Source of the DNA: Mobula hypostoma
Taxonomy: Eukaryota
Direction of reading: 5' to 3'
Length of the DNA: 64,000 nt
Assembly: GCF_963921235.1 (NCBI RefSeq)
Contig: NC_086107.1
Span: forward strand, 46,748,001-46,812,000
Shown: piece by piece, positions 17,451-55,028 of the stretch
Numbering within the stretch: position 1 is the first letter of the stretch
How the letters are laid out: each line of letters begins with the position of its first letter
Made by a program: the position numbers and the translations under genes
Notes under the pieces: generated by a model
Databases searched by the model: none
Seen by the model: only the letters and a program-made list of their open reading frames with translations
What the model was told of the DNA's origin: nothing

Positions 17451-19978
17451 CAGGGGTGGCCAACTGTTTACATTCCATGCATCAATTTTTTCACACACGA
17501 GTACAGATGCACCATACAACTCTTGTACCCCTATTCAATTCTTGTAAAAGTGTTAATATAGACATATTTAGCATTTTACATGATATATTGATTTAATATA
17601 AAGTAACGATAAACATTACTTACCTTAATGAGATTTTTGAGTCTGTTTTGATTTTGCCAAGCTTTTAATGTTTGGAGTTAAATTAGTTACTGAGAGCAGC
17701 AGAGAATTCTTCAAGTTTGAATCAGTCAATCGCAACCTCGTTTTGTTTTTAAACAATTTCATGGCTGAAAATGCTTGTTCACATCTGTACATCGTTCTGA
17801 AACAACAGATATAACTCTGGGCAAATTTTCTTAGTTTTGGAAGATGTTAACAGGGTAATGATCGCCAGAAATTAATCATGTCAGAAGTATTTGGGACTGA
17901 GGGAAGCTCATCAAATTTCATGTTCAATAATGAATTTGTTTTCAAGAAAATAAGTTCCATTTGTATGTTACTAGGCATCTTCATGATTTTTTGTTCACTC
18001 AGTGAAAATGGGTTTATAAATGCAAGTATGCAGTCTTCTTCTTTAGCAAAATCATGGAAATGACTTGCAATAAACTGATTTTTTCAATATATTTTGTAAA
18101 ATTGCCATTATCTTCAGCACATTCACTCTGCTCTTTTAAGTGCGGAAACTGGCTCTAATCCTCATTTTCTAACTGAGAGGTGAACAGTTTTATCTTCATC
18201 TTGAATGCATTGATATCATTTACTAAGCTAGGAAACAATTTGTTCTTGCCCTGGAGTTTCAAATTTAGATCACTGAGATGGCTGGCAACATCAACTAAAA
18301 ATGCTAAATCAAATAGCCAATTATTATCATTTAAGAGGGCTCTTTCCTCAGGCAGCTCATTTTTCTCTTCTAGAAAATTATGAACAGTATTTTTCAGTTT
18401 CCAAAATCTACTCAGAACCTGTCCTCTAGAAAGCCAGAGCACCTCACAACAAAGGACGAGATCGCTATATTCCAAATCTAACATTCTACAATATTCTCTG
18501 AATTCTCGTCTGTTTAATCCTTTTGCTCTAATTTTATTCATGCATTTCACAACCAGTAACATAACATGCTGCAAGTTTAAAGTTTTCCGCACAATGATTC
18601 TTGGTGTGTAATGCAGTGATATTTTAGTAGGGGATGACCTAAAAAGTTTTCAAGCAAAGTTGTCCCAGCGGCTTTACCTATCATTGACGGCACTCAATCA
18701 GAACAAACACCGATGAGTTTACTAGAATCTAGTTCTAGATTTTCTAGGCATGATTTTACTTTGTCAAAAATGTATGATTCTTTTGTTTTTCCATGAAACG
18801 ACTCAAGACCGATAAGTTCTTCGAAGACACTAAAATTATCATCAATTCCTCTCATAAAAATGCTTAATTATGCTACATCACATATGTCAGCAGATTCGTC
18901 CAAAGCTAAAGGAAAGGAAGTACAAGCATGGACAAGGTCTTTCAGTTGCTCAGATACATCATGACAGAGTTCTTCGGTGCGTCTCGTAACTGTTTGCTTT
19001 GACAGAGCAATTTCGTCTACCTTCCTTTCGATATTTTTGTCACCAAGTCATCTTGCAAATATTTGGAGACGAGGCTTAACAATTTCTTCTCCATGAGAGA
19101 AAGACTTTCGTTTTTTGGTCAACGCTAAAGCAATTTCGTAGGACGCTTCTGTCATCGCCAAACTTTAACAACAACTTTTGACAAATATATTTTGTCTTCT
19201 TTTGATTTCTTCCTTTTTCTTAATCACATATTCTTTCCGTAACTCAGACCCAAGCACTAGCTTCAGTTTTCCTTCTATTTCAGTCTGATGTTGTGTTTTA
19301 TAGTGTCTATTAAGATCATGTCTTCTATTATGTGAGAAAGTGTTTTCACAAACAATACCCAACAGTTTTCCGGACGGATCCACTATAAATAAGAACTTAT
19401 TTTCCCACTGTTCACTGAATTCACGCTTACAATCACTTTCTGCTTTTCTTTTGCTTTGTGATCGGTCACGGAATGTATAAACAAGGCTTAATTTTCGAAA
19501 AAGTACAAAACTGCAAATGTTCACAAAGGATGAACAAAGCACAACTCCGTAGCGAAAGAATGTCAATTGTAAACTGACTGGCAAAAACCTGTGATGCACC
19601 GCTGGTGCAGACGACTAGTGCTTCAGAATCAAACAAGTATCAAACGTGTATGGAACAGTTATAGAACGACTGCAGAACAAAAGTCCTTCTTTCCTAGTTT
19701 GACTCATTGAACATTTTTAAATTGAAAATAAATTTATGTGAAAGAAGATAACATTCCCCAAAAGATGTGCACGAAATAATAAAATCGCTAAAAATAATTG
19801 CTAAGTTTTAGATTTATTTTCAGTAAAACCCATTTCTAGCTCTAAGCTACTTGAATTCCTGTTATAGATTTTTTTCTACAAATCGGTTTTTGGTTAGTAC
19901 TTATTGCATGAGTAGGCTTATTTTTTTTATTATTATCACTGGGGTGCAATGCGCCATAGGTTGGCCATACAGTATCTG
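17451..19978 (-). mobile_element. hAT transposon (GTF2IRD2/SPIN-like), degraded
   Basis: Left TIR CAGGGGTGGCCAACT after gactagaa; diverged right end gttggcca...ctg|gtctaggg; ORFs 19165-19599 (W..KFLF...C.N.FS...NL.RHY) and 18155-18592 (EVLWLSRGQVLSRF, WLFDLAFL.D). Right boundary approximate. Confidence 0.8.
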
Positions 19979-23527: not shown

Positions 23528-23619
23528 ATTTATCTATTTATATACTACTAAAACTCTCATGCTCTGTCTGTCTGTTTGTGACCTCCATTTAGCGCAAACG
23601 CTGCATTACAGTGCCTCTC

Positions 23620-26600
23620 ATGTGAGATGTGGCAGTCTTGGGGGAGCACCCCAATCCCGCAGAGTCACATCTGCCAGAAGTGCATGCGGCTGGGCGATCT
23701 GGAAGACTGTGTAAGGAATCTGAAGCAGCAGCTGGATGACCTTCGACTCATAAAGGAGAATGAGGCAGTCATAGATGAGAGCTACAGGGAGGTAGTCACA
23801 CCTAGGCTGTCGGAAGCAGGTCATTGGGTGACAGTCAGAGGGGGGAAGCGAAGGTGAGTAGACAGGTAGTGCAGAGCACCCCTGTAGCCATAAGCTTACT
23901 GTCCTGGATACTGTTGGTGGGGACGACCAACCAGGTGTGAGCCACGGTGGCAGGGCCTCTGGCACTGAGTCTGACCCTGTGGTGCAGAAGGGTGGGACGG
24001 AGAAGAGGAGAGCTGTCGGCATTGGAGACTCTATAGTCAGGGCAGCAGGCAGGAGATTTTGTGGACGTGAGAAGGACACCCACATGGTTTGTTGCCTCCC
24101 GGGTGCCAGGGTCTGGGATGTCTCTGACTGGGTGCATGACATCCTGGTAAGAGAGGGAAAGCAACCAGAAGTCATGATACATGTTGACACCAATGACATA
24201 GGCAGGAAGAGGGATGAGGTCCTGAAGTGTGAGTTTTGGGAACTCGGCAGAAGGCTGAAGAACAGGACCTCAAGGGTGGCGTTCTCAGTATTGCTGCCAG
24301 TGCTATGTGACAGTGATGGTAAGAATTGGAGTAGATGGCAGTTGAATACGTGGCTGAGGAGTTGGTGCAGGGAGCAGGGTTTTAGATTTTTGGATCATTA
24401 GGATCTATTCTGGGGAAGGTAGGACCTGTACAGATTGGATGGGTTGCACCTGAACTCGAGGGGGAGCAATATCCTTGCAGGTAGGTTTGCTAGCATGGTT
24501 CGAGAGGGTTTAAACTAATTTGCGAGAGGGATGGGACCCAGCGCGATAGAGCAGTGAAAGAAGTGCATGGAGTAAAGCCAGATCTAACACACAGAGAGGC
24601 TTTGAGGAAAGAGAAGCAGAATAAAGGGTGTAAAGGTAAGAAGGTAGATGGGCTAAAGTGTGTGTACTTCAAAGCAAGAAGCATCAGGAACAAAGGTGAT
24701 GAACTGAGAGCTTGGGTACATACATGGAATTATGATGTAGTGGGCATTACAGGGACTTGGGTGGCACCAGGGCAGGAATGGATTCTCAATATTCCTGGAT
24801 TTCAGTGCTTTAAAAGGGATAGCGAGGGGGGAAAAGGGGAGGAGGGGTGGCATTACTGGTCAGGGATACTATTACAGCTACAGAAAGGGTGGGTAATGTA
24901 GCAGGATTCTCTTTTGAGTTAGTATGGGTGGAAGTCAGGAACGGGAAGAGAGCAGTTACGCTATTGGGAGAATACTATAGGCCCCTTGGTAGCAGCAGAG
25001 ATACCAAGGAGCAGATTGGGAGGCAGACTTTGGAAAGGTGCAAACATAACCGGATTGTTATCATGGGTGACTTTAACTTCTCTGATATTGATTAGCACCC
25101 GATTAGTTCCAAAAGTTTGGATGGGGCAGAGTTTGTTAAGTGTGTCCAGGACAGATTCCTGTCACAGTACGTTGACAGGCCGACTAGGGGGAATGCCATA
25201 CTAGATGGAGTATTAGGTAACGAACCGGGTCAGGTCACAGATCTCTCAATGGGTGAGCATCTGCGAGACAGTGACCTCCACTCCCTTCAGCATTATCATG
25301 GAAAAGGATGGAGTCAGAGTGGACAGGAAAATTTTTAATTGGGGAAGGGGAAATTATGAGGCTATAAAGCTAGAACTTACGGGTGTGAATTGGGATGATG
25401 TTTTTGCGGGGAAATGTACTATGGACATGTGGTTGATGTTTAGAGATCTCTTGCAGGATGTTAGGGATAAATTTGTCCCGGTGAGGAAGATAAAGAATGG
25501 TAGGGTGAAGGAACCATGGGTGACAAGTGAGATGGAAAATCTAGTCAGGTGGAAGAAGGCAGCATACATGAGGTTTAGGAAGCAAGGATCAGATGGGTCT
25601 ATTGAGGAATATAGGGAAGCAAGAAAGGAGCTGAAGAAGGGGCTGAGAAGAGCAAGAAGGGGGCATGAGAAGGCCTTGGCGAGTGGGGTAAAGGAAAACC
25701 CCAAGGCGTTCTTCAATTATGTTAAGAAGAAAAGGATGACAGGAGTGAAGGTAGGACCAATTAGAGATAAAGGTGGGAAGATGTGCCTGGAGGCAGTGGA
25801 AGTGAGCAAGGTCCTCAATGAATACGGTATTCACCAATGAGAGTGAACTTGATGACAGTGAGGACAATATGAGTGATGTTGATGTTCTGGAGCATGTTGA
25901 TATTAAGGGAGAGGAGGTGGTGGAGATGTTAAAATACATTAGGACGGATAAGTCCCCGGGGCCTGATGGAATATTCCCCAGGCTGCTCCACGAGGTGAGA
26001 GAAGAGATTGCTGAGCCTCTGGCTAGGAACTTTATGTCCTCGTTGTCCAAGGGAATGGTACTGGAGAATTGGAGGGAGGCGAATGTTGTCCCCTTGTTCA
26101 AAAAAGGTAGTAGGGATAGTCCGGGTAATTATAGACCAGTGAGCCTTACGTCTGTGGTGGGAAAGCTGTTGGAAAAGATTCTTAGAGATAGGATCTATGG
26201 GCATTTAGAGAATCATGGCCTGATCAGGGACAGTCAGCATGGCTTTGTGAAGGGCAGATTGTGTCTAACAAGCCTGATAGAGTTCTTTGAGGAGGTGACC
26301 AGGCATATAGATGAGGGTAGTGCAGTGGATGTGATATATATCGATTTTAGTAAGGCATTTGACAAGGTTCCACATGGTAGGCTTATTCAGAAAGTCAGAA
26401 GGCATGGGATCCAGGGATGTTTGGCCAGGTGGATTCAGAATTGACTTGCCTGCAGAAGGCAGAAGGTCGTAGTGAAGGGAGTACATTCGAATTGGAGAGT
26501 TGTGACTAGTGGTGTCCCACAAGGATCTGTTCTGGGACCTCTACTTTTCATGACTTTTATTAACGACCTGGATGAGGGGGTAGAAGGGTGGGTTGGCAAG

Positions 26601-27215
26601 TTTGCAGATGACACAAATGTTGGTGGTGGTGTAGACAGTGTAGAGCATTGTTGAAGATTCGTGAGGTAATGATGCAGCTCTATAAAACTCTGGTTAGGCC
26701 ACACTTGGAGCACTGTGTCCAGTTCTGGTCGCCTCACTATAGGAAGGATGTGGAAGCATTGTAAAGGGTACAGAGGAGATTTACCAGGATGCTGCCTGCT
26801 TTAGAGAGCATGGACTATGATCAGAGATTAAGGGAGCTAGGGCTTTACTCTTTCAAGAGAAGGAGGACGAGAGGAGACATGATAGAGGTATACAAGATAT
26901 TAAGAGGAATAGATAGAGTGGATAGCCAGTGCCTCTTCCCCAGGGCAGCACTGCTCAATACAAGAGGACATGGCTTTAAGGTTAGGGGTGGGAAGTTGAA
27001 GGGGGTATTAGAGGAACGTTTTTTCACTCAGAGAGTGGTTGATGCATGGAATGCACTGCCTGAGTCAGTGGTGGAGGCAGATATACTAGTGAAATTTAAG
27101 AGACTACTAGACAGGTATATGGAGGAATTTAAGGTGGAGGGTTGTATGGGAGGCAGTGTTTGAGGGTCGGCACAACATTGTGGGCCGAAGGGCTTGTACT
27201 GTGCTGTACTATACT
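23620..27215 (+). mobile_element. CR1-like LINE with ORF1 (zinc finger plus SGNH esterase) and degraded ORF2
   Basis: ORF 23627 (HICQKC), 23937-24401 (VGIGDSIVR, GDS esterase), EN at 24554-25338, RT at 25818-26654 (QGSVLGP, FADD), 3' tail at ~27200. Confidence 0.93.
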
Positions 27216-27231
27216 ATACTAATACTACTAT

Positions 27232-27907
27232 TATTATGCTTGCACAGTCATAGTCATTATAGCCCTCTTTACCCAATGTAACAGTGTAGCTGGATCCACT
27301 GGACTTTCTCACTTGATGATGATATTAAGTGAGTCAAGAGCAGTTGATCATTTAGACCACTGAGCAGCTGTTACTTGAAAGGCCTGACTCATTGTCAGTA
27401 ATGTATGTACTAAGTGAAGACATTGAACATTTAAATGTTGATTGAGCACAAAGCGAGAAACAGCCATGACTTCCAGATAGTTTGCCTACGCTACTCATAA
27501 ACCTGAACTCCATCCTAATACTACATTATCCAATTTGGCAGAGCAATAACCAGAATGATGCTGCAGGTCTCCATGTTCTTGAGCTATGACTGCCATCATG
27601 CAGCCATGTTTCCCCTTGACGTACAGGATAAACAGTTTACACATATCAGGGACTCCTAATGCAGGACCTGTAAATCATGTCACCATTAAAATTTGAAAAG
27701 CTTCCAGTTGTTCTTCATTCAGAGTCACACGATCATCTAAGCAGTTTCTCCCCTTCAACAGATGTTGAGAGGTAGTCCAATCTCAGGAGATGAATCAACC
27801 CATGCTCTGCTGTAGTTACACAAACCCAGAAATTATCACAGTTGCTGGATTGTTGTAGGCATTTGCAGATTTGCTGGCCTTTGCAGGAGGGAGATTGAAA
27901 ATTTGGC
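27232..27907 (-). pseudogene. Retroviral RT thumb/connection (tether) remnant
   Basis: Minus strand reads QIFNLPP...EEQLEAFQIL...GPALGVPDMCKLFILYV...AQEHGD...GYCSAKLDNVVLGW...FVLNQHLNV...NIIIK.ESPVDPATLL...EGYNDYDC; many stops, so absent from the ORF track. Confidence 0.8.
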
Positions 27908-28735
27908 GGTGTGGTGTCATAACTACAACCTCTTACTCAATGTCAGCAAAACTAAGGAACTGATAGTGGACTTCAGGAGAAGGAAACCAGAGGTTCCATT
28001 AGCCAGAATTCATTGGAGGAGCAGAGGTGGAGAGTGTCAGAAACATTAAATTCATGGCTGTCACTATCTCAGAGGACCAATCCTGGAGCCATCATATAAT
28101 TGTAATTACAAAGAAAGCGTGACAGTGCCTCTACTTCCTTCGGAGTCTGCGGAGATTTGGCATGTGCTCAAAAACCTTGACAATAGATGTGTGGTGTGAT
28201 GTACTGACTGGCTGCGTTATGACCTGGTAGAGGAACACCAATGTTTCTGAGAGGGAAATCTTACGAAAAGTCATGAATTCAGCCCAGAGCATCATGGGTA
28301 AAACCCTCCCAACCATTGAGCACATCTACATGTAACATTGTAAGAAAAGCAGCATCCATCATCAAAGATCCTCACCACCCCAGGCCATGTACTTTTCCAG
28401 CTGCTGCCATCAGTGCCCCTGGGTTCAAGAACAGTTACTACCCCTCAAGCTTCAGGCTCTTGACAAAAGAGGGTAACTATACTCATTCTACATCTGATGT
28501 TCCCACAACCAATGATCTCACTTTAAGGACTCTTTATCTTGTTATTTCATGCTCTTGTTATTTATTGCTATTTATTTATATTTGCATTTGCACTGTTTGT
28601 TTTTCATTCATCCTGTTTACAGTTACTGTTCTATAGATTTTCTGAGTATGCCCACAAAAAAAAGAATCTCGGGGTAGTACATGGTGAAATGTATGTACTC
28701 TCATAATAAATTTTACTTTGAACTTTTGAAACTTT
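27908..28735 (+). mobile_element. Rex1/Babar- or L2-like LINE 3' fragment
   Basis: LNVSKTKELIVDFRR motif, IVRKAASIIKDPHHP, tail aataaattttactttgaactttga. Confidence 0.75.
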
Positions 28736-29110
28736 CTGCCCCAAATAAATTGCTTCATATCGTTGCAATTGTGCCTTGTCCAAATTTGCTTTGTGAACCT
28801 TTGGAGGATAAATCAAGCAAATAAAACACTTCATGTTCATCTTGGTCTGCATTGTCAAATGCAATTAGTTCATCATGTACATACTGTATGATAGTCAAAT
28901 TTATGGCAGGTAAGTCCCTAAGATGTTGTCTCAGAGCCATGTGGTAGTGAGTGGGATAGTGTTGTCCATGAAGTGTAAAAGCCAACTATGGCTGACATTC
29001 CTATGCCAGTGGTAGAAACCAGAATCCACTGGCCACATTGATAATTGTAAATCACTTGTACGATGGCTTGAAGGCATTGAAAATTGTTGGTGGATCATCC
29101 ATTAGGGGAT
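28736..29110 (-). pseudogene. Retroviral reverse transcriptase core remnant
   Basis: PPTIFNAFKPSYK.FTIINVASGFWFLPLA.ECQP.LAFTLHGQHY...TIIQYVHDELIA (decayed YVDD)...HKANLDKAQ...IYLGQK. Confidence 0.82.
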
Positions 29111-29139
29111 GGTTAACTTCTTATTAACTCCTGAGTAAC

Positions 29140-30105
29140 TCAACCACACTGTTCTGTAGTGTTACTCATATTCAGAAATGCTTTCAAAAGTCTTCTGCTT
29201 GCACTCAACCACCTTTCTCCAATCATATGGGTGTTGTATAGGTTCTTAATACATTGAAATTCAGCCCAAGACTTTAAACCTCCTTTTTTAGGATGTGAAA
29301 ACTCTTTGGACCATCTATCAATCTTTTCTGATTCAGCTGGTTGATGATTTATCACTTCCTTGGTCTTTATTGGGTCAAGTCATTATATGGTTGGCTAACC
29401 TATTGTTCCATTATTGCCATCTTCACTTGTGTCACCTTAGGTCTCTGTAGAATCAATGCAATTTCCATCTCCTAGTTCCCCTAAGTTGGGCATGTGGCAT
29501 TGCCTGATAAGACTGTCCAATATCGAGAGTGTTTTCCAAGGAGGAGCATCACTCCACTTGAGGTCTCTGCTGGATTTTCTGACACTGCTTCATTTTATCT
29601 TGAAGCTCCATGCAATGCACTTTCATGCAATTACACTTAGTCCGTAGTTCTTTCACTCGTTCAGTTAATTCTAAGATTTGCTCCTTAGAATTTTTACTGT
29701 CTCTGTCAGGCAGTTTCTGTAGTTCATCAGTTTTCCTTTTCCTTTTCCACTTATTCTGTTAACTTACATGTTCAGTCTTCTGACTCAACGTGTTCACTTT
29801 TAAAACCACATATTTGATCTTCCAACTCAGCATGTTCATTTCTCATTTAACTGTGATAACACCCATGTAGTTTTTTTTTCTTTCCCTCAAGCATTCCCAA
29901 GGTTTTACTCATGATTTTTAAAATATTTACCAAGCAGCCAAATTTCATGAGACTCAACACTGACAGCATATTTCACTCTGATTTCTTCATTAATCTTGTC
30001 AATTTGAAATATTTTGTACAGGTAAGAACCCTAACTCTCAGTCATCTGTTCACACCTAACGACTGGGGGATCAGTTCCTTTTTCTGTCGTGGGTTGCACT
30101 ACTTT
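29140..30105 (-). pseudogene. Gag-like remnant (coiled-coil N-terminus plus capsid-like segment)
   Basis: Stop-riddled frame MSKVVQP...EHAELEDQIC...KEQILELTERVKELR (coiled coil), then IDRWSKEFSHPKKGGLKSWAEF; lies between the PBS and RT on the same strand. Confidence 0.55.
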
Positions 30106-30462
30106 GGACATTGCTTTGCTGCACATAACGCTTAATTTGTCAACTTAATGATCTGATGATAATTTTATTAGCAATCAACAAGCTTGTAATAATTTTAATT
30201 TTATTGATACTCTTCCAGCTTGTAACAATTTTTGTTATGCAGAACACTTTAATTGTTACTTCCATTTTTTAATCACTAGATTTGCAACCAAATTTAATTT
30301 TGTACCTGTTTAACTTTATCCTAAATTTCCTTTGTTTAGATGCTGTATTGAAGCAAGAATGAGATTTCTCTGACGGTTAGGAAAGTAAGAGGAAGATCAC
30401 ATGTGTGGAGCAAAATATTTCCCTTCATCTGGGATTATTCTACCCCTTAAATTTCCGAAAAC

Positions 30463-30480
30463 ATCCTGCTGGCTCCACCA
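30463..30480 (-). promoter_or_regulatory. Putative primer binding site (tRNA-Ser-like)
   Basis: Minus strand TGGTGGAGCCAGCAGGAT, 14/18 to the recalled tRNA-Ser PBS TGGCGTAGTCGGCAGGAT (two differences are CpG-type), 3 nt after an ...ggatccaaCA end. Confidence 0.55.
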
Positions 30481-30483
30481 AGC

Positions 30484-30950
30484 TGTTGGATCCCGATGTT
30501 TAAGCAATTTAAAGGTTCTTCGGAAAACAAGAATGAAGCATAGAACTTGATGCTTACTATTGTTTTATTAAATGTTATAATAGCAAAGAAGAACAAGAAG
30601 AAGCGTTGAAAGTTCAAAGAAAAGACTAGACTAAAAAGTAATAATGGTCTTCTTATACCAGACAAGGTAACAGAAATTGTGCTGATAACTGTTAACTAAT
30701 AAAATATCCAAATTCAAGTTGTATGACATTTCCAAATGAACCTCAAAAGTTTCTAGAAAAATTCATTGCCAACTGTACTGTAATTGTTGGAAAATTCATT
30801 GAAAAATTACATTATATAGCTAATTATATAAAAATATAAGCAAATATAAACCATTGGGCGTGAATAGGAGGGGCCGCATCTTTCCATTTGAGCAAGAGCG
30901 TCCTTCTGGCCATAAGAGACATAAAAGCCAAAATGTGCAAGTCAGATGAC
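30484..30950 (-). mobile_element. Probable 5' LTR remnant of the retroviral relic
   Basis: Ends in CA next to the PBS; AATAAA at 30564-30569 (minus); TATA-like tract ~30810-30850. Far boundary not defined. Confidence 0.45.
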
Positions 30951-31029
30951 TCCAAAGTAATATCCTTTCCTCAGAACATTTTCAAACAGTCTAACAATTG
31001 TTATTGAGGTAGTAATCTCGGGATTACTG

Positions 31030-34000
31030 CCTTTGCCACGCGACAGTGAGAGTAGGAATGCGATGAGGTGGAGGATAAATGCGTGGCTGAGGGATTGGAG
31101 CAGGGGGCAGGGATTCAAGTTTTTGGATCATTGGGACCTCTTTTGGCGCAGGCGTGACCTGTACAAAAAGGACGGGTTACACTTGAATCCTAGGGGGACC
31201 AATATCCTGGCAGGGAGATTAGCGGGGGCTACTGAGGTGACTTTAAACTAGAATGGTTGGGGGGTGGGAATCAAATTAAAGAGGCTAGGCGTGAGGAGGT
31301 TAGTTCACAACAGAGGGATGGGAACCAGTGCAGAGAGACAGAGGGGTGTAAAGTGAGCGTAGAAGCAAAAAGTACAAAGGAGAAAAGTAAAAGTGGCAGG
31401 CCGACAAATCCAGGGCAAGCATTAAAAAGGGCCACTTTTCAACATAATTGTACAAGGGCTAAGAGAGTTGTAAAAGAGCGCCTGAAGGCTTTATGTGTCA
31501 ATGCAAGGAGCATTCGTAATAAGGTGGATGAATTGAAAGTGCAGATTGTTATTAATGATTATGATATAGTTGGGATCACAGAGACATGGCTCCAGGGTGA
31601 CCAGGGATGGGAGCTCAACGTTCAGGGATATTCAATATTCAGGAGGGATAGACATGAAGGAAGGGGAGGTGGGGTGGCGTTGCTGGTTAAAGAAGAGATT
31701 AACGCAATAGAAAGGAAGGACATATGCCGGGAAGATGTGGAATCGATATGGGTAGAGCTGCGTAACACTAAGGGGCAGAAGATGCTGGCCACCTAACAGT
31801 AGTAGTGAGGTCGGAGATGGTATTAAACAGGAAATTAGAAATGTGTGCAATAAAGGAACAGCAGTTATAATGGGTGACTTCAATCTACATGTAGACTGGG
31901 TGAGCCAAATTGGTAAAGGTGCTGAGGAAGAGGATTTCTTGAAATGTATGCGGGATGGTTTTTTGAACCAACATGTCGAGGAACCAACTAGAGAGCAGGC
32001 TATTCTGGACTGGGTTTTGAGCAATGAGGAAGGGTTAATTAGCGATCTTGTCGTGAGAGGCCCCTTGGGTAAGAGTGACCATAATATGGTGGAATTCTTC
32101 ATTAATATGGAGAGTGACATAGTTAATTCAGAAACAAAGGTTCTGAACTTAAAGAGGGGTAACTTTGAAGGTATGAGACGTGAATTAGCTAAGATAGACT
32201 GGCAAATGACACTTAAAGAATTGACTGTGGATATGCAATGGCAAGCATTTAAAGGTTGCATGGATGAACTACAACAATTGTTCATCCCAGTTTGGCAAAA
32301 GAATAAATCAAGGAAGGTAGTGCACCCGTGGCTGACAAGAGAAATTAGGGATAGTATCAATTCCAAAGAAGTAGCATACAAATTAGCCAGAGAAAGTGGC
32401 TCACCTGAGGACTGGGAGAAATTCAGAGTTCAGCAGAGGAGGACAAAGGGCTTAATTAGGAAGGGGAAAAAAGATTATGAGAGAAAACTGGCAGAGAACA
32501 TAAAAACGGACTGTAAAAGCTTTTATAGATATGTAAAAAGGAAAAGACTGGTAAAGACAAATGTAGGTCCCCTGCAGACAGAAACAGGTGAATTGATTAT
32601 GGGGCGCAAGGACATGGCAGACCAATTGAATAATTACTTTGGTTCTGTCTTCACTAAGGAGAACATAAATAATCTTCACAGAGGGTCCAGTGAGATGGAG
32701 GAACTGAGTGAAATACATGTTAGTAGGGAAATGGTGTTAGGTAAATTGAAGGGATTGAAGGCAGATAAATAACCAGGGCCAGATGGTCTGCATCCTAGAG
32801 TGCTTAAGGAAGTAGCCCAAGAAATAGTGGATGCATTAGTGATAATTTTTCAAAACTCATTAGATTCTGGACTAGTTCCTGAGGATTGGAGGGTGGCTAA
32901 TGTAACCCCAATTTTTAAAAAAGGAGGGAGAGAGAAACCGGGGAATTATAGACTGGTTAGCCTAACGTCGGTGGTGGGGAAACTGCTGGAGTCAGTTATC
33001 AAGGATGTGATAACAGCACATTTGGAAAGCGGAGAAATGATCGGACAAAGTCAGCATGGATTTGTGAAAGGAAAATCATGTCTGACGAATCTCATAGAAT
33101 TTTTTGAGGATGTAACTAGTAGAGTGGATAGGGGAGAACCAGTGGATGTGGTATATTTGGATTTTCAAAAGGCTTTTGACAAGGTCCCACACAGGAGATT
33201 AGTGTGCAAACTTAAAGCACACGGTATTGGGGGTAAGGTATTGGTGTGGGTGGAGAATTGGTTAGCAGACAGGAAGCAAAGAGTGGGAATAAACGGGACC
33301 TTTTCAGAATGGCAGGCGGTGACTAGTGGGGTACCGCAAGGCTCAGTGCTGGGACCCCAGTTGTTTACAATATATATTAATGACTTGGATGAGGGAATTA
33401 AATGCAGCATCTCCAAGTTTGCGGATGACACGAAGCTGGGTGGCAGTGTTAGCAGTGAGGAGGATGCTAAGAGGATGCAGGGTGACTTGGATAGGTTGGG
33501 TGAGTGGGCAAACTCATGGCAGATGCAATTTAATGTGGATAAATGTGAAGTTATCCACTTTGGTGGCAAAAATAGGAAAACAGATTATTATCTGAATGGT
33601 GGCCGATTAGGAAAAGGGGAGGTGCAACGAGACCTGGGTGTCATTATACACCAGTCATTGAAAGTGGGCATGCAGGTACAGCAGGCGGTGAAAAAGGTGA
33701 ATGGTATGCTGGCATTTATAGCGAGAGGATTCGAATACAGGAGCAGGGAGGTACTACTGCAGTTGTACAAGGCCTTGGTGAGACCACACCTGGAGTATTG
33801 TGTGCAGTTTTTGTCCCCTAATCTGAGGAAAGACATCTTTGCCATAGAGGGAGTACAAAGAAGGTTCACCAGATTGATTCCTGGGATGGCAGGACTTTCA
33901 TATGAAGAAAGACTGGATGAACTGGGCTTGTACTCGTTGGAATTTAGAAGATTGAGGGGGGATCTGATTGAAACGTATAAGATCCTAAAGGGATTGGACA

Positions 34001-34345
34001 GGCTAGATGCAGGAAGATTGTTCCTGATGTTGGGGAAGTCCAGAATGAGGGGTCACAGTTTGAGGATAGAGGGGAAGCCTTTTAGGACCGAGATTAGGAA
34101 AAACTTCTTCACACAGAGAGTGGTGAATCTGTGGAATTCTCTGCCACAGCAAACTGTTGAGGCCAGTTCATTGGCTATGTTTAAGAGGGAGTTGGATATG
34201 GCCCTTGTGGCTACAGGGGTCAGGGGGTATGGAGGGAAGGCTGGGGCGGGTTCTGAGTTGGATGATCAGCCATGATCATAATAAATGGCGGTGCAGGCTC
34301 GAAGGGCCGAATGGCCTACTCCTGCACCTATTTTCTATGTTTCTA
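31030..34345 (+). mobile_element. Relatively young CR1-like LINE (ORF1 end, ORF2 EN-RT, 3' tail)
   Basis: ORFs 31257-31796, 31843-32772 and 32800-34275 (491 aa RT, KFADDTK); ORF2 broken by a small deletion near 31795 and a single TAA at 32770; tail (ttctatgt)n. Confidence 0.95.
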
Positions 34346-34689
34346 TGCTTCTATTTCATTTCAGTACTATAATTTTTTTAAAAAACAAGGCTATTGATGC
34401 ACTCAGTATGCCAGTGTAGAATTAATCATTTCGTTCTCATTCAGATTATTTTCCTTCTGAGAGGTTAAGGCTGAAATTGTACATTTATTCAAATATATTT
34501 TACAATTAATCCCGAAACAAATTTAGCCAAGATTCAGAGCATCATGTTGTTCTTTACTAATTAAGCTTGTCCAATAATTAAATTCGTGATCTGAACGGTA
34601 AAGCACAGAGTGAAAAAAATCAACTATTTCCTTCCATAACATTGTAGTGACTAAAGATCTCAAGTATTGTATTAGCTGCGATACTATTT

Positions 34690-35010
34690 TGTATGATCAG
34701 AAAAGGTACTGTGAAAGTGCTAAGTTCCTCCAGCATTTTGTGTGTTGCTCTGGATTTCCAGCATCTGCAGAATCTCTTCTGTTTATTACTATAAAAATGC
34801 AATTTCTCAATTTGTGGTAAGAAATCAGCAAGTCAGGCAGCATCTGTAGAGGAGAATATAATGTACAATCAATGTTTTATGATGAGACCCTTCATTCAAA
34901 GCCAAAACATGTAATGCTTATTGCCTTCTATAGATGCTGTCTGACTTGCTGATGTCCTCCAGCATTTTGTGTGTGTTGCTTAAGATTACCAGTATCTACA
35001 GAATCTCTTG
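34690..35010. mobile_element. Penelope-like tail fragments
   Basis: cctccagcattttgtgtgttgct...ccagcatctgcagaatctc motifs matching the terminus of the 4669 arm, in two short copies. Confidence 0.55.
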
Positions 35011-35334
35011 TATTCATGATTTCCCAATACTCTTGCTCAAAGAAAATAAACTATTGTTACTTCTATTCTCTCATGTTGTGTATCAATACGAGAGTGTACA
35101 AATGACATTGACATGGCATGACAATACTAGGTGTTCAGGGGGTTCATGATTGGTCAGGCCTGATTAGGCTGAATCTCATTCAGATGGAATTGTTATTACA
35201 CACCGGCACTGAAACCCCTCTTGGGAGTTAATCCCATACAATATGAGCCATCTCTCACATATGCTCTCCGTGCCATTCTATGCTGCATGGAGATGTTTGG
35301 GGCACAGGCTGCTCCTGCACATATTCTACTTCCT

Positions 35335-42570: not shown

Positions 42571-43590
42571 CCAAGCACCACGTCCTGGCTCCGGGCGGCA
42601 TCCAAGTACCACGTCCATGTCCTGGCTCCGGGCGGCATCCAAGTACCACGTCCACGTCCTGGCTCCGGCGGCATCCTAGTACCACGTCCACGTCCTGGCC
42701 CTGGCGGCGTTCAAGTACCACGTCAAGTCCTGGCCCTGGCAGCATCCAAGTACCACGCCAGGTCCTGGCTTTGGCGGCGTCCAAGTACCACGCCACGTCC
42801 TGGCTCCGGCGGCGTCCAAGTACCACGTCCACATCCTGGCTCCGGCGGCGTTCAAGTACCACGTCCACATCCTGGCTCCGGCGGCGTCCAAGTACCACGT
42901 CCACATCCTGGCCCTGGCGGCGTTCAAGTACCACGTCAAGTCCTGGCCCTGGCGGCGTCCAAGTACCACGTCCACGTCCTGGCCCTGGCGGCATTCAAGT
43001 ACCACGCCAGGTCCTGGCCCTGGCGGGATTCAAGTATCATGTCAAGTCCTGGCCCTGGCGGCATTCAAGTACCACGTCCACGTCCTGGCTCCGGCGGCGT
43101 CCTAGTACCACGTCAAGTCCTGGCCCTGGCGGCGTCCAAGTACCATGCCAGGTCCTGGCTTTGGCGGCGTCCAAGTACCACGTCCACGTCCTGGCTCCGG
43201 TGGCGTCCTAGTACCACGTCCAAGTCCTGGCCCTGGCGGCATTCAAGTACGACGTCAAGTCCTGGCCCTGGCGGGATTCAAGTATCATGTCAAATCCTGG
43301 CCCTGGCGGCGTTCAAGTATCATGTCAAGTCCTGGCCCTGGCGGCGTCCAAGTACCACGTCCACGTCCTGGCTCCGGCGGCGTCCTAGTACCATGTCAAG
43401 TCCTGGCCCTGGCGGCATTCAAGTACGACGTCAAGTCCTGGCCCTGGCGGGATTCAAGTATCATGTCAAATCCTGGCCCTGGCGGCGTTCAAGTATCATG
43501 TCAAGTCCTGGCCCTGGCGGCGTTCAAGTATCATGTCAAGTCCTGGCCCTGGCGGCTTCCCAGTTCTGAGTCTAGTCCTGGCCCTGGTGG
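42571..43590 (+). repeat. GC-rich minisatellite, 35/36-bp units, roughly 28 copies
   Basis: Variants caagtaccacgtccacgtcctggctccggcggcgtc (36) and caagtaccacgtcaagtcctggccctggcggcgtc (35), interleaved. Confidence 0.95.
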
Positions 43591-43739
43591 TCTGTGATTC
43601 CTGTCCTACCCCCTTGTCTGAATCCCTTCTCTGCCCCTCTGGCCTCTAGCCCTCGTCTGCAGCCCCCGCCTGCACTTTAGTCTAGTTCCATCACCAGAGC
43701 TAGATAGGTACTGTCTGGTGTTCATTCGTGTTGATCTTG

Positions 43740-44010
43740 TCTTGTCTTGTCCTCACCTCCATGGGGTAAGTCTGGCCGTCTTGCCGTTGCCCCGCGGGGA
43801 GTCATGTCTTCTCCTGTCCTGTCCTCGCCTCCATGGGGTAAGTCAGGCCGTCTTGCCATTGCCCCACGGGGAGTCGTGTCTTGTCTTGTCCTTGTCCCCT
43901 GGGGTAAGTCAGGCTGTCTTGCCGTTGCCCTGCGGGGGGGTCATGTCTTGTGTCTTGTCCTCGCCTCCGTGGGGTAAGTCAGGCTGTCTTGCCGTTGCCC
44001 CACGGAGGGT
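43740..44010 (+). repeat. Tandem repeat, ~66-72-bp unit x4
   Basis: ggggtaagtc(a/t)ggc(c/t)gtcttgcc recurs at 43763, 43835, 43901 and 43971. Confidence 0.9.
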
Positions 44011-44013
44011 CAT

Positions 44014-44245
44014 GAGTCCCAGCCCTATGTCCTGTACCCAAGGAGGGGTCCCGGCTCTCTGTTCTGTGTGCGAGTCCCAGCCCTATGTCCTGTACCCAAG
44101 GAGGGGTCCCGGCTCTCTGTTCTGTGTGCGAGTCCCAGCCCTATGTCCTGTACCCAAGGAGGGGTCCCGGCTCTCTGTTCTGTGTGCGAGTCCCAGCCCT
44201 ATGTCCTGTACTCAAGGAGGGGTCCCGGCTCTCTGTTCTGTGTAT
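44014..44245 (+). repeat. Tandem repeat, 58-bp unit x4
   Basis: gagtcccagccctatgtcctgtacccaaggaggggtcccggctctctgttctgtgtgc at 44014, 44072, 44130 and 44188. Confidence 0.95.
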
Positions 44246-47200
44246 GTGTCCATGGTTCCATGTACCTGCTCTCCTGTGACCGAGGCTCTGTTTTCCATGT
44301 TCCTCCTCTCCCTAGCCCAAGTCATACCCATTCCTGGTTCTTGGGTCCGAGCCCGAGGCAAGACCCAGGTACTCTAACCTCTTCATGTCTCCTCTAGTTC
44401 TGGGAGCCGTTTCCGAGTCCAAGCCCAGACCCTTGGTCCCAGCCTAGTCGTAGTCCTCAGTCCTTATCCTGTTCGCTATTCCTGCTTCTGTCTTGCTCTC
44501 CTGGTATCGTACAATAAACTAAACCCAAGTAACCTCACAAGAAGTGTCTTGCATTTGGGTCCACCCTTGTTTCCAATGCCCCACCACTGTGAGAGTAATC
44601 TCTTTTTCCAATTGATCTAGTTCTGCCATATATTCTTTCTTAATTTTAGATGTATGACTTATTATCTGACCCCTCAAGTATGCTTTCATCGCATCCCATA
44701 GTATAAATTTATCATCCACTGAATGAGAGTTTGTATCCAAAAAAAATTGGATCTGTTTTTTCATAAAATCACAACAATGTTGACGTTTAAATAATGTTGA
44801 ATTAAATCTCCATCTATAAGTCACTTCTTCCATATCAGTCATTATTATTATCATTAATAAAGGAGAGTGATCTGACAATATTCTTGCTTTATATTCCATA
44901 TTTTTCACTCTGTGTTGAATATTGATTGATAATAGGAAAAAATCTATCCTTGAGTAAGTTTTGTGTCTATTAGAATAGAACGAATAGTCTCTTTCTTTGG
45001 GATTGATGCTTCTCCATTTATCAATCAAATTTAAATCTTTCATCAATGATAAAGTTAGTTTTACTACCTTCGATTTTGTAACAGCCTTAGTTGATCTACC
45101 TAAGACTGGGTCTAGGCAAAAATTAAAATTTCCTCCTATTAATATTTTTTCATGTGCATCAGCCAAGTTCAAAAAAGGTTCTTGTATAAATTTTGTATCA
45201 TTTTCATTTGGTGCATAAGTATTCATGACAGTCTATAATTCGGAAAAAAGTTGTCAGTGTATAATCATATATCTCCTCGCAGAATCGATTATTACATTTT
45301 GTATTCTAATTGGTAACTGTATTCTAATTGTATTCTAATTGCTACTCCCCTCGCTTTTGAATTAAATGAAGCTGCAACAACACTACCCACCCAATCTCTC
45401 TTTAATTTCTGATGGTCTGCTTCTGTTAGATGTGTTTCCTGCAAGAAGGCTAAATCTTCCTTCATTTTCTTAAATATGTGTTAAGATTCTTTTCTTTTCA
45501 CCGGTCCATTAAGCCTATTAACATTAAAAGTCAAAAAATTCAATAAATTAGTCATTATTCTTAACAAAGTTACTCCAATCTAAAGCATTACTTAACATCT
45601 TAACTCTCATAGTTCCTTGGGGAATCTCTTTAAACTTCACCATGTTGCTATGTGTTTCCCTCCCAATCATCCAGGCAAAAAGAAAGAAATTAAAGATAGA
45701 TATAACACAAAAAGAAAAATAACAAAATACCCCCGTACTAATGTTGTGAATGAAAAAAAAGCACAACACTACCCCCCTCCATTTTGCAGGTCATGGCTAT
45801 AGCCACGCTTGCACACATGAATTCCGTAGCGGTTGGTCAGTATTTCTTCCAGCTCCCCCATAACAAAAAAATTGTATATATATAGAAAAATTAATGTCAC
45901 TATTCCCAACTAATATTCTTCAAACTTTAACCTTTCTTCCCCTCTATCATATAATTAATAATATACTTATATATTCTTTCGCCTTTAAGAATCCACCAAG
46001 TCTATTCCTTGACCAAATCTTCATCTTTAATCCATCTCACTCCCTTGGGTTTGTTCTTGTATCTTCGAAGAATCTCGCACAAACTCCTCCGCTTTCTGGT
46101 AATCGTCAAAAAATCTTTTTTCTCCGCCAGCCAAAAAATCTTCAAGGTTGCAGGATAACGCAGTACAAATTGATAACCATGATCCCATAGGACTTTTTTC
46201 ACTGGATTAAATTTCTTTCTTCTCTTCAAAAGTTCATAACTTATGTCAGGGTAGAAAAAAATTTTGTTCCCTTCTATCATCAATGGCCCTTTTCTGTTCT
46301 TGGCAGCTTGGGCAGCCACCTGTAGAATCCTTTCTTTGTCTTGAAATCTTAAACATTTTACTAAAATTGATCGTGGATATTGGTCATCTTCTGGTTTTGG
46401 TCTTAGAGCTCTACGTGCCCATTCAATTTCAATTGATCGGTCTCCCTCTTTCATTTGCAAAGTTTCCGGGATCCATCTTTGAAAAAATTCTGTTGGATTG
46501 TCTCCCTCTGTACCTTCTTTAAGATCAACAATCTTAATATTATTTCGTCTACTAAAATTTTCCAGCACGTCCACTTTTTCCAACAGTCAATTTCTTTCCG
46601 TTTTCCAGACAAGCGTATCATTTTCTGTTTTTTCCACTCTGTCGTTAATATGTTCTATTGTTCTTTCCAACTTTTGAAGTTTCTTATCCATTTTCTCCTG
46701 TCTTTTCATAGCTTTATCATAGCTCAGCTTCATGTTTCTAATCTCTATTTTTCATCCTTTTAATTCAATCATTACTTGCAATAAAGCCTCTTTTATGTCT
46801 CCATCATATCCTTTACTTTAGTCGCTTCCAGTTCTTCCTCCTCTTCTTCATCTGTGTTCTCTGCGGAATCCAATTCTGACTCTGAGTCACTTTCGCTTGC
46901 AGTGGCCGTCAGTTCTTGTAGTTTGAGTTGTATCGATTTGCGCATGCCTACTTGTCTGCGCATGCGCAAGTCCAGCATCTTCTTCCCAGGGACCGCTACC
47001 GCCGCCATTGCTCCCTGTTCTTCTTCGCCAGAGATAAAATGTGTCTCCTCAAAAGGAGGTCCAACCCGAGTCCGAGGTTCCATCGCTGCAGTAGGCCTTT
47101 ATTTCTTCCCGTCTCATGGTGACTTCACAACAGGAGACTTCTTCTGTTGCAATTTACGAGGCATATCGTAAAATAGTCTTGAGAAGTTTATAAGTAGTTT

Positions 47201-49541
47201 TCGGAAAGTATTTATTAACTTCTCTTTGTTTAAACGGTACTTTGCTGATTTTTTACAGGAGAGATGGATTCATACATCTCAATCCCACGTCATCACGTGA
47301 CGTCCCCCTACAGTCATCTTTTATTGTCATTTAGTAATACATGCATTAAGAAATGATACAATTTGTTCCTCCAGAATGATACCACAGAAACACAAGACAA
47401 ATCAAGACTAAAAAAAACTGACAAAAACCACATAATTATAACATATAGTTACAACAGTGCAAAGCAATACCGTAATTTGATGAAGAACAGACCATGGGCA
47501 CGGTAAAAAAAAACTCAAAGTCTCTCGAAAGTCACATCATCTCACACAGACAGTTGAAGGGAGAAACTCTCCCTGCCATGAGCTGCCAGCACCACAAGCT
47601 TGCCGATACAGCATCCTGGAAGCACCTGACCACAGTCTGACTCTGAGTCCCTCTGAAGATTTCGAGCCTCCAACCAGCACTCCGACACCGAGCACGGAGC
47701 ACCATCTCTGCCGAGCTCTTTGACCCCGGCAACAGGCAATAAGCAAAGCCAAGGATTTGGGGCCTTCCCCTCCGGGATTCTCGATCGCACAGTAGCAGCA
47801 GCAGTGAAACAAGTATTTCAGAAGTTTCTCCAGGTGTTCCTCTGTGCTTCTCACGTCCGTCTCATCAAATCAGGATTGTGCGCAGCCCCTATTTAAGAAA
47901 TACGATATCAATTCGGAGCAGCCGCATGCGCCGCGTCGCGCCACTATCTTCTCCTCCCCTCTGTGTGTATAGATGTTGCAGCACCCCCAAGAAGCTCACA
48001 GACTCCACTGTTGATTTTGCAGCATCGACAATGACTAGTTTTAGGCTATGGCTGACGCATAGCATGAACAGAGCTTTTTGTCAATATCTAGCACCCTCTT
48101 CTGCACCCCGCTATTTTCCTCCACATATTGATCCCGTTATCATATGCATGCCCCCTGCATTTTGAAATATCTAATCCTAACTTCTCCATATGCGTTAAGA
48201 AAATGTTCGTTAGGCCTGCACCTGTTGTGTCAAACACTGGTAGGAAACCGACAAAATGCTCACTAACAGTAGCTCCGACATTTACTTGGCATGTGACAAT
48301 GCGCAGTGTCACAGAGAGCTGCTCTATGTGTGCAGCGTCAGTGGTGCTGTCCATTATCACTGAGTAGTAACATGATTGTTTTACTCTCTCTGTTATCGCT
48401 TCCAGTGTCTTGTCTCCAGTAAGTGTGATTAACTCATTTTGTATGGTTTTCCCCATGTAGTGGTCAGCAATCTCTTTTTTCTCTGCTCATCTGACATGTT
48501 CGTTCATCACTGAGTCGAACTCAGCAAGCAGCTCCACCAGACCTAGAAAGTTCCCATTATTTGGTTCATGTAGGGTGGAATTGTGGCCACGGAAATCAAG
48601 GTTTCATTCTGCAAGGTGACAGACTATGGCAATGAACTTCTTCATTACATCATTCCAGTGTTTTTTTTCCAGCCTTTGCATTTCTTGATACGTGCTGTCA
48701 ATGGCACTGTGCGTTCTTAAGCGCGTTTCCAGCTCACGCCGGCTATCCATGTTGGCACAGTGCGCATTTGACTTCTCATGATCCTGGAGTGTGAGAGTGA
48801 GTCGCTCCCACACTCTGAAACCTCCACAAGTGAGACTGTGATTTCGCTTGTCAAATAGGGTACAGCAAAAACAGAAAATTGAATCAGATGATTCTGAGTA
48901 CACTAACCATGACCTACTAATGGTTTCTCCATTTTTCATCTTCATAAGATATCTGTCCTTGGTAAAATGACAGCTCTGTGGATAATCAATGTCCTCCAAC
49001 TGAACGGGACTTCTGCTAACAATGTCAATCCATTGGTCACTAGTAATATGCTTTGGCCAATGTGCTGGATCGGTCTCTGTGAATGTTAGTGGGGCTTTCT
49101 CTCTGTTTGGTGTGCTGGTGGCGGCATCTCCCTCACCTGTCTCAGTTGTAGGACTGTCATCATGCTGTGGTGCTTGTTCATCAAACAAAGTTTGGTCATC
49201 ACTATCACCATCTGTTTGAGGAGAATTGTTCTTCTCATTTCCATTGCTCTGATTATCAACATCTCCTGTACCGCTTACACTGTCACTTGGCACTGCAGCC
49301 CCATGCTGTGGCGATGGTGCAGCAGCAACTGCAGTCGGCGGGCCTTTCACAGATGCTGGACCAAAGAAAGATGTAACTTTTGAGAGACTATTTAGACGTT
49401 TTGTTTTGTCTAATTTTTTCCATTTTTCAACACCACTAGGATAGGAGCGTTTCATTTTCGTCTCATTGAAAAGTAGCCTTCTTTGCTAGGAGCAATGTTT
49501 ACAAGTGAAGTAAATATTTTAATGTATTTCTCAGATGTCAG

Positions 49542-51491: not shown

Positions 51492-53707
51492 TTTTGGATG
51501 ATTTGAGAAAGTAGCCAATGACTTAATTTAAGATTCTAAGTCATTTGTATGTTTTCTGTGATTTCATGTATTGAATTTGGAACAAAATCACTCCTTCAGA
51601 ATACCTTGGGAATATCTTTCCATTATTTCACTATATAAATGCAAGGATTACCAATTACTATTACATTTAGAATTGAAAAGGCTGCACGCAGTTGTTCAGA
51701 AATCCTAATGCTTGTGCACCATCTACACTCTAAAGAGTGTGAGTTAGTTTGTGTTATGTGGCCAAAGCTGGGGATCCAATGTGAGAAAGTGTTGGGATAC
51801 CCATCGTCAATCTGAAATTGCTTGGGTTCTATTCCCCGTACTCTTTCTTTGGAAAAATATTTTAATACTGTGTAACATGTGAAACAAAGAAATGGAATTG
51901 CTTTCATGTTAATAGACGGGCATCCAATAATTTAGAACATCTGTGAGGCTTGCACCACCAAAGTCCCGAGGATGCCAGGTTATCTGAGATTTATATGTTA
52001 ACAAAAATGACGTTTTCTTTCGGATTGGCATTAAAAATACCTTTTTGTTTCAAATAGAAAATCTTATCCACAGTACAGCACTGAGGTAAGCAACTGTTAA
52101 ATTGACTCTGGCTTAGCAAAGCTCCCATATTATACAGTTTGGGTAACAGAAATAATTACAACAGCAACCTTCACTTCTGTCTACAATACAATCTACATTC
52201 TCTTGTCTACAGATCGGGCAACCAGCGGGGCAGAGAGTAAAAACTTCCCAGACATTATGGAAAATAGCATTTTGAATAGCTCTCTAGGAATGCATCCCTC
52301 CTGTATTGCAGGGGTGTAGTTCAGTAAGATGACTATCAAATAAAGCAAAGATGGGACCTGTGCTGTAGCCCAAGGCTGATTTAAATATAGGTGTTCCCCG
52401 CTTTTCGAACATTTGCTTTACGAAACCTCACTGTTACGAAAGACCTACATTAGTACCCTGTTTTCACTAACAGAAGGTTTTACCGCTGTTATGAAAAAAG
52501 CAGTGCATGAAAAATGGCAGCATACGAGAAAAAAAGCAGCGCACGCCCCGAGCAGCCAAGCTCCTCCCCCAGAACTGCATTCTAGCTGCCATTGCTTAAA
52601 CACGTGCTTTATCTTGATTTATTTTGTGCATCCGTTAGCAAGATGAGTTCGAAGGTATCAGAAAAGCCTAAAAGAGCTCGTAAGGGTGTTACACTTAAGT
52701 AAGTGCTATTGACAGAGAGGACAACTCCGAAGAATCTTTGCGAGAGATCTGGAAAGACTACAATATAAAACTGGCAATCGCCAACATTGGAGATGCTCTT
52801 GATAGGCTAACAGTCTCGATGGTGTTTGGAGGAAACTATGTCCTGTGATGAAAAACCAAGTTATCAGAAGATTGATCAGGAGAGAGATTAACGAAAAGAG
52901 ATACAGTTCCGAGTTTTGACAGACCGGTTGCTTTGAACCTGAACTGTTTGAAATTTGATGGACAGGCGATACCCCAGCAGGGGGATAAAAGGAACAGGTT
53001 CGCTAAGGCAAGACAGACGCCACGAGATAACGAGACCCTGGAAAAGCGGTGTGCCCCCACATGTTGGTGGATTTTGGAGGTCTGGTCGCGGGACCCACCA
53101 TTGACGCACAGGGTGAAAAGGTACGATCGGCGGGAACCTGGTGTGTGTGTCCGCCCTTGCCTGGGTGCCGGGTTCACCACGGAAGAACGGTCGTATCCGG
53201 AACAGAGGGGTCACAGTCGGTGACCGCAGAGGACAGTAAAAGGGTTCGCCCGAAAGCTAACTGCGAAGAGCAAAGGTCTGTTTGAATCAGAATTTGCATA
53301 TTCTCTCTCTCTCTCTCCAACAGCACAACAGCGATTACTGCGAACTGTACTAAGCTGAACTGAACTCTGCGTCACTTGAGACTGATCATTTTACCCCTAG
53401 ACTGCGATAGAGCTTGATTGATTCCTATTTTCCTAGTTCTGTGTACATGTGTGTTTTATCATTGCTAACCTGTTGCATTTATATCCTTAGGATTAGAGTA
53501 CTGTGTTGCTTATTTCTTTAATAAAACTTGCTTAGTTCCAGTAATTCAGACTCCAACTAAGTGGTCCATTTCTGCTGGTTTGGCAACCCAGTTACGGGGT
53601 ACGTAATGTAAGTGGGGATCTCGTCCGCGATTTTGAACGCCAAATTTGGGACTGGGTAAATTGATTGGGTTAAAATTCCCGAAAGAAAGAAAGGGCAAAC
53701 AGCAGAA

Positions 53708-55010: not shown

Positions 55011-55028
55011 GGGTTTATCTCGGCCAGA

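Follow-up and report, generated by a model that had tools for sequence, protein, structure and literature searches.

The window examined here is a stretch of 64,000 nucleotides from the ray Mobula hypostoma (contig NC_086107.1, positions 46,748,001 to 46,812,000 of the forward strand), and its minus strand carries, between about position 30843 and position 27232, the relic of an endogenous retrovirus (ERV). This relic is one dead, heavily broken copy of an old multicopy ERV family. In our reading, to which we give a probability of roughly three in four, it is a dead provirus whose family groups with ERVs of the spotted gar and the common carp; the lineage that they form is likely sister to the gammaretroviruses and epsilonretroviruses taken together (class I).

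Anatomy of the relic and its family

An earlier note on this DNA, made from the sequence alone, had proposed a hidden retroviral relic with its parts in a given order along the minus strand, and a three-frame reading recovered all of them in that order: the end of a long terminal repeat (LTR), a primer binding site (PBS), gag, a deletion, reverse transcriptase (RT), here split by a long interspersed nuclear element (LINE), and a tether domain like that of murine leukaemia virus (MLV). The features are as follows.

30484..30843, minus strand: 5' LTR remnant, ~360 of ~475 nt, ending in CA at 30484 and holding AATAAA at 30569
30463..30480, minus strand: decayed PBS for tRNA-Ser(AGA), TGG from 30480, 14/18 bases matching
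29126..30462, minus strand: leader plus 5' gag, broken by numerous stops and frameshifts; the same region is matched in dispersed copies
29119..29126, minus strand: deletion junction; the gag end, protease and RT N-terminus are gone and gag abuts RT
28728..29119, minus strand: RT from the palm to the start of the thumb, with VASGFW, QYVHD and KANLDKAQ; stops and one frameshift
~27889..28727, plus strand: LINE 3' fragment inside RT, ~70% alike to unrelated loci and 93-95% to all four duplicated copies
27232..27888, minus strand: RT thumb and MLV-like tether, with FLGLCNYSRAW and the end DPATLL..KEG..D.DC at ~27250
23600..27231, plus strand: CR1-type LINE truncating the element, with LINE open reading frames; left end approximate

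The LTR length of ~475 nt comes from a family copy with paired LTRs, and the remnant in the window aligns at ~70-75% with the LTRs of other family copies. Its upper limit lies at ~30843-30886, the match to duplicated copies of the region stopping at 30843/30849; the element is real, but the span of 27232-30950 first given for it takes in other DNA at 30849-30950. The piece at 30849-31005 is not LTR, and the duplicates hold an extra 1.4-1.7 kb between it and the LTR remnant. It includes a short frame, blank in Pfam, that we take to resemble the end of an L1-type ORF2. The label gag for 29126..30462 is based on position, Pfam being blank there. Within it lie a capsid-like stretch (near 29126-29350) and a helical charged stretch (29549-29758); the latter is what stands of the coiled-coil gag proposed earlier, whilst the coiled coil itself comes from the look of the sequence only and Pfam gave no gag family. 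A coiled coil is present in the Gag of snakehead retrovirus (SnRV).

The proposed loss of nucleocapsid, protease and the RT N-terminus was borne out by comparison between copies. The gag and RT flanks are joined, at ~29126/29119, in the window and in all four duplicated copies, and lie 0.6-2.0 kb apart in the single copies L035, L039, L051 and L088. The window RT also lacks 12 codons at 28957, and the insert that splits it is presumably a LINE, judging from the frame at 27816-28049, for which Pfam was blank. The tether matches MLV and xenotropic MLV-related virus (XMRV) RT in the PDB (E 2e-11, all four matches being MLV/XMRV-type chains) and RT_RNaseH_2 in Pfam (E 4e-4), and the window stretch scores 540 against the RT and tether of the gar ERV, compared with 31-50 for eight shuffles of the same DNA. 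A protein search with the window tether, which is too decayed for this purpose, found no relative among 163 candidates. Past 27231 the window gave no match to the ERV family, and the copy there lacks RNase H, integrase, env and the 3' LTR. The window copy is genome debris that makes no protein and likely does nothing.

The better-preserved copies for which a search had been advised were found elsewhere in the genome. In a protein search with the tether, 122 of 150 scored places (845 candidates) showed at least 40% identity, and a DNA search gave four near-copies on the same contig (94-96%) together with 35 dispersed copies at 71-75% (40 scored of 320 candidates). Family copies were read from 80 stretches of 9.9 kb. 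In the dispersed copies the tether is followed by RNase H (13/13 of those read) and then by integrase, env and a second LTR; some also retain a CCHC knuckle (Pfam zf-CCHC at only E 0.08), a protease-like motif and the RT start, all of which are missing from the window copy. The family layout is LTR, PBS for tRNA-Ser(AGA), gag with CCHC, pol (RT, tether, RNase H, integrase), gamma-type env and LTR. Pfam found no gag or env family in 12 gag and env frames.

The PBS had been described as tRNA-Ser-like, and it matches the 3' end of the host tRNA-Ser(AGA) at 18/18 positions in copy L045; all nine genome matches to the pattern are tRNA-Ser(AGA) genes. Of 45 sites bearing the LTR-end motif, 22 precede a stretch that agrees with this tRNA end at 11-18 of 18 positions; the other 23 score 5-10 of 18 and are mostly 3' LTR ends or chance motifs. 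Scoring was against tRNA-Ser(AGA) only, a search with the tRNA family having given only tRNA-Lys among 30 loci fetched. SnRV uses an arginine tRNA as primer, and an SnRV-like arginine primer was suspected first and dropped after the 18/18 serine match. The ancestor of the family would have been an infectious retrovirus whose reverse transcription was primed by tRNA-Ser(AGA).

A transmembrane (TM) piece of env from copy L044 matches TLV_coat in Pfam (E 2e-6) and syncytin-1 in a PDB search (E 4e-7), a second TM piece gave no match (one of the two tried matched), and the motifs CWVC and CX6CC recur in the family env, which by its sequence is of gamma type. A junction lacking ~730 nt of env is common to 9/17 loci having both env flanks, a count that should not be read as a frequency, since 11 of the 17 came from a junction-spanning query and inflate it (2/6 among the others); the remainder comprise three loci with a middle of ~730 nt or longer and five with other partial losses. 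Because the one junction is common to loci on different chromosomes, it points to copies made from an env-deleted template. Part of the family may therefore have spread from a template missing the middle of env, by intracellular copying or with helper proteins. Loss of env favours spread of this kind.

Phylogenetic placement of the lineage

A profile made from 17 family segments was searched against 1.84 billion proteins. It ranked the spotted gar protein W5NLS4 at 463 bits, a second protein at 411, a horn shark protein at 293 and the Pol of walleye epidermal hyperplasia virus 1 (WEHV-1) at 252, with MLV at 193 and foamy virus at 108; a protein atlas contributed generic RT clusters only. From S2 Data of Xu et al. 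2018 (PMC6001957), W5NLS4 (row P0180) was equated by eye with Le_oc_ERV2, and P0375 and P0181 with Cy_ca_ERV4; in S2 Fig of the same paper these two ERVs are neighbouring tips under clade Huo. Among the named anchors of our trees, WEHV-1 is known by source, P0239 was taken as SnRV on four motifs equal to those of the SnRV row in the supplement of Wang and Han 2021 (PMC7947760), and lokiretrovirus rows were recognised by the motifs RCPFGY and YASRPL of that supplement. The trees held 85, 58 and 52 rows, the RT-alone approximately unbiased (AU) test 35, and the RT+tether trees and AU tests 34 and later 32, rows being dropped for speed and not by result.

In maximum likelihood trees of RT+tether, the ray family, the horn shark protein, the gar ERV and the carp-type ERV form a clade (100/99). 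This lineage is sister to gamma+epsilon (100/99), which is itself a 100/99 clade without the family. Within the lineage the carp-type rows branch first, then gar, then the horn shark protein with one further row, and then the ray family. The RT-alone tree supports the lineage at 99 and the lineage plus class I at 97 (99 and 96 in a quick tree under a mixture model), the tether-alone tree supports the lineage at 98, and the integrase tree unites the family with carp-type rows at 100, within a class I group at 98. A position as sister to gamma and epsilon, and not within them, recurred in 5/5 RT-containing trees whose topology was drawn or read. On RT+tether, AU tests reject the joining of the lineage with lokiretroviruses (p 1e-4), Gypsy (2e-4), SnRV (0.008) and WEHV-1 (0.011), and likewise Huo as one clade (2e-6) and a union with all epsilon (0.0017), these last two tests also constraining other rows. 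Nesting in epsilon/class I or in Gypsy, the outcome named beforehand as counting against a deep lineage, did not occur in the RT+tether trees or AU tests. On these grounds the family is a retrovirus and not a Ty3/Gypsy element, as the earlier note had held from the presence of a tether: the tether, with its MLV match, is followed by a second RNase H, env precedes the 3' LTR in family copies, and the RT falls among those of retroviruses.

Several points weigh against this placement. The tether-only tree gives the sister position a support of just 80, and in the RNase H tree, which is short and poorly resolved, the family falls weakly with epsilon rows (88) while the carp-type rows lie elsewhere. 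Three alternatives put to the AU test on RT alone, lokiretroviruses (p 0.11), SnRV (0.46) and Huo (0.37), all escaped rejection. The main limit is that the trees are without true foamy, HERV-L, HERV-S and class II rows, most anchors being labelled by motif. In addition, the gar protein was used as a ruler for the RT+tether readings of the family and may pull them gar-ward, and the choice of env loci described above bears on the account of spread.

The RT motifs to which attention was first drawn proved to be of unequal value. Where the column is filled (21 copies), GF with W or a stop after it is found in 10 and AFF in none; the motif is not that of crown class I, and the S of the proposed SGFW is decay, most copies having N. 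KANLDKAQ, noted in place of the usual KVS, is exact in 5/20 copies, with KVS in 0/20. Since GFW also occurs in SnRV, in lokiretroviruses, in several fish ERV groups and in a second ERV family of this genome, it is an old shared state of little value for placement. The family further shows RLPQG, YYSAKLD and PATLL. The PATLL tether end is present in gamma rows, epsilon rows and the gar protein, and absent from SnRV-like and lokiretrovirus rows, so the PATLL..DC end cited in the earlier note is itself the class I form.

These observations bear on three other placements. In the first, the lineage would belong to clade Huo (SnRV/ERV-L related, class III), and the class I-like features of tether, RNase H and integrase would be old states that were kept or the product of domain exchange. 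Le_oc_ERV2 and Cy_ca_ERV4 do fall in the Huo part of S2 Fig of PMC6001957, as judged from the order of tips and not from branches; domain swaps are reported for retroviruses (PMC7947760); and SnRV, clade Huo and lineage I of the elephant shark ERVs of Han 2015 (CmiERV; PMC4422223) share with the family the RT motifs GFW and K.N..K and fish hosts, sharks included. Huo also escapes rejection in the RT-alone AU test. However, SnRV and Huo are only 24-29% identical to the family, SnRV-like rows are without the PATLL end, every RT, tether and RT+tether tree sets the lineage closer to class I than to SnRV, and Huo as one clade is rejected on RT+tether, in a test that also constrains other rows. Membership of Huo therefore seems to us rather improbable.

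A second possibility is an ordinary divergent epsilon-like (clade Mu) ERV whose RT motifs have drifted. Epsilonretroviruses and class I (WEHV-1, clade Mu) resemble the family in tether, RNase H and integrase type and in a gamma-type env with CX6CC; the PATLL..DC end, the RNase H tree and the integrase, which lies inside the class I group without resolution, are all compatible with such an origin. Nevertheless, WEHV-1 is just 30-32% identical to the family, the AFF and KVS motifs are absent from it, the well-supported gamma+epsilon clade excludes it, and both epsilon constraints were rejected. This explanation is largely refuted, and we consider it very unlikely.

A third possibility, towards which the earlier note had leaned, is a lokiretrovirus or a foamy-like virus in a cartilaginous fish. 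Lokiretroviruses, whose RT is described as sister to all other retroviruses and which have a Mononegavirales fusion protein-like env and a Ty3-like tether (PMC7947760), are like the family in having GFW in RT and a tether between RT and RNase H, and the RT-alone AU test tolerates the grouping. They differ in tether type, RT motifs, env class and tree position: RCPFGY, the tether motif YASRPL and a paramyxovirus-like env are set against the RLPQG, YYSAKLD, PATLL and gamma-type env of the family, which is 24-26% identical to the lokiretrovirus row and 43-50% to the gar ERV. The family was never grouped with lokiretroviruses in any free tree, and with the MLV-like tether and the RT+tether AU result a lokiretrovirus is refuted. 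A foamy affinity is opposed by the profile, in which MLV far outscores foamy virus, and also by the CCHC knuckle and the gamma-type env. Foamy viruses have a foamy-type env and a Gag without the knuckle. The lokiretrovirus or foamy reading is accordingly the least credible of the three, with next to no chance of being correct.

Returning to a lineage sister to gamma+epsilon, a bolder form of this reading holds that the gar, carp, shark and ray elements constitute a major lineage without a name, sister of all class I and misfiled in Huo, in which old RT motifs like those of SnRV are combined with tether, RNase H, integrase and env of the class I kind; on this the balance of evidence is, in our judgement, about even. 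The grouping of the gar ERV nearer to sharks than to the carp-type rows (96/94) hints at host switching. Two further rows, P0366 and P0190, branch just outside the lineage plus class I, P0366 with a PATLL tether end, and may represent a further step of the same grade.

Duplication, decay and age

The ERV relic and its flanks (window 27231-35074) lie within a segmental duplication, of which five copies, 92-97% alike, occur in ~370 kb of the same contig, at 46.41, 46.51, 46.62, 46.67 and 46.78 Mb (L130-L133 and the window). No host gene was found among 28 window frames scanned with Pfam. The window and the four duplicates share both the gag-RT deletion and the LINE inside RT, and the two events thus predate the duplication. 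In contrast, in 4/4 duplicates of the window insertion the tether leads on to RNase H (31-58 of 158 columns), so the cut at 27231 postdates it. The CR1 element at 31006-34350 is likewise placed, from sequence comparison, after the segmental duplication. The window copy lost the gag end, protease and RT start, received a LINE into RT, was duplicated with its neighbourhood and was later cut by CR1 elements.

Thirteen LTR pairs of the family gave Kimura two-parameter distances of 0.14-0.29 (median 0.23). The median corresponds to ~520 My at the shark rate assumed by Han 2015, which is implausible, and to ~50-115 My at 2.2e-9 to 1e-9 per year; as the host substitution rate is not known, the range of LTR ages runs from ~50 My to more than 100 My. 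Entry into the germ line would accordingly have taken place at some time between tens of My and over 100 My ago. No young family member was found: a search with a carp-type Pol gave 48 places, all 33-40% identical and belonging to other lineages, in what was a strict first look. In the carp-type part of the lineage, the P0375 cluster has an intact 1,166-aa Pol and 3,937 sequences, and its size and intact Pol suggest recent activity in some bony fish.

Other elements were met in the window and the genome. A Gypsy-like LTR element occupies window 53660-56708 (plus strand), with a gag bearing charged repeats and a CCHC knuckle and a shortened pol in which an integrase zinc-binding domain stands ahead of RT-like pieces. 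GC-rich tandem arrays at 42591-44303 consist of units of ~35-36 nt (26 copies) and of 58-72 nt, with long frames on both strands. Two DNA-transposon-like remnants lie at 19165-19614 and 48604-49485 (both minus strand), one with a Spin-doc zinc finger (Pfam E 6e-6) and the other with a frame that we take to be hAT-like, Pfam being blank. Elsewhere, the second non-class-I ERV family (L059-L063, e.g. L059:5070-6047, minus strand) is better preserved and has DITNGFW and KISPHKAQL; in the PDB its RT matches foamy virus (198 bits) above MLV (169), it groups with Mustelus and Heterodontus proteins, it resembles rh_ty_ERV4 of PMC6001957 by eye, and its RT had no relative among viral contigs. At loci L066-L070 there are epsilon-like ERVs whose pol is open over 665-989 aa and which also have env; by eye they are near le_er_ERV5 of the little skate, in agreement with the chondrichthyan host proposed in the earlier note. 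Finally, P0009 (Microcaecilia) is one predicted protein with two RTs, one ERV-S/L-like and one gamma-like, likely a nested insertion merged by gene prediction.

Comparison with known retroviral lineages

The earlier note had proposed a deep-branching lineage in a chondrichthyan. The family does lie outside epsilon and gamma, but the lineage is not new, members from gar and carp being present in the data of PMC6001957; the family is a ray member of the Le_oc_ERV2/Cy_ca_ERV4 group, a deep lineage already catalogued and perhaps misfiled in Huo. In a search to which subscription papers, Repbase and full supplements were external, no paper turned up that gives these gar, carp, shark and ray elements a group name or a position as sister of class I. 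Nor did the literature searched describe any member from a shark or ray for which RT, primer tRNA and type of env are defined, although one fragment had been deposited in 2018.

If the sister position is true, clade Huo becomes a grade on the way to class I, and the group marks a step at which the MLV-type tether was present whilst the RT palm still had the old motifs. If the reading as a major lineage is true, presence in a holocephalan, a shark and a ray would rank it with the most ancient retroviral lineages that can be traced and would reveal in what order the features of class I arose. This is a modest addition to paleovirology and not a new kind of system; the lineage may matter, the copy does not.

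Several known elements stand close to the family. In ca_mi_ERV3 of the elephant shark (PMC6001957), ~69/97 residues of the integrase core equal those of copy L035 by eye and the tether end is the same, the difference being that the sequence shown there begins at the tether end and is not a tip of S2 Fig; it is probably, on this likeness, a chimaera relative of the same lineage. SnRV-like and epsilon-like ERVs were reported from the elephant shark by Han 2015 (PMC4422223), and four short words of ca_mi_ERV3 are absent from the three CmiERV sequences given there, with no link shown to lineages II/III. The horn shark protein XP_067892312 (P0182), with one further row, is sister to the ray family (99/98). 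No text describing ca_mi_ERV3 or XP_067892312 as a lineage was found in the sources covered by our search.

Le_oc_ERV2 of the spotted gar is like the family in DMANGFW, TPLVADPS, FLGLCN and an MLV-like tether ending NPATLL; over RT+tether its identity is 43% with the window copy and 49-50% with others of the family, and it groups with the shark and ray rows at the 96/94 noted above. It differs in its bony-fish host, in being far better preserved and in having the thumb motif KASYSKAQ where the family has KANLDKAQ. Cy_ca_ERV4 of the common carp, with P0375, P0371 and P0181, belongs to the same clade on RT, tether and integrase (98-100) and is 37-44% identical to the family over RT+tether. This carp type has DMSNGFF and not GFW and, in contrast to the dead family of the ray, an intact Pol and a likely recent activity.

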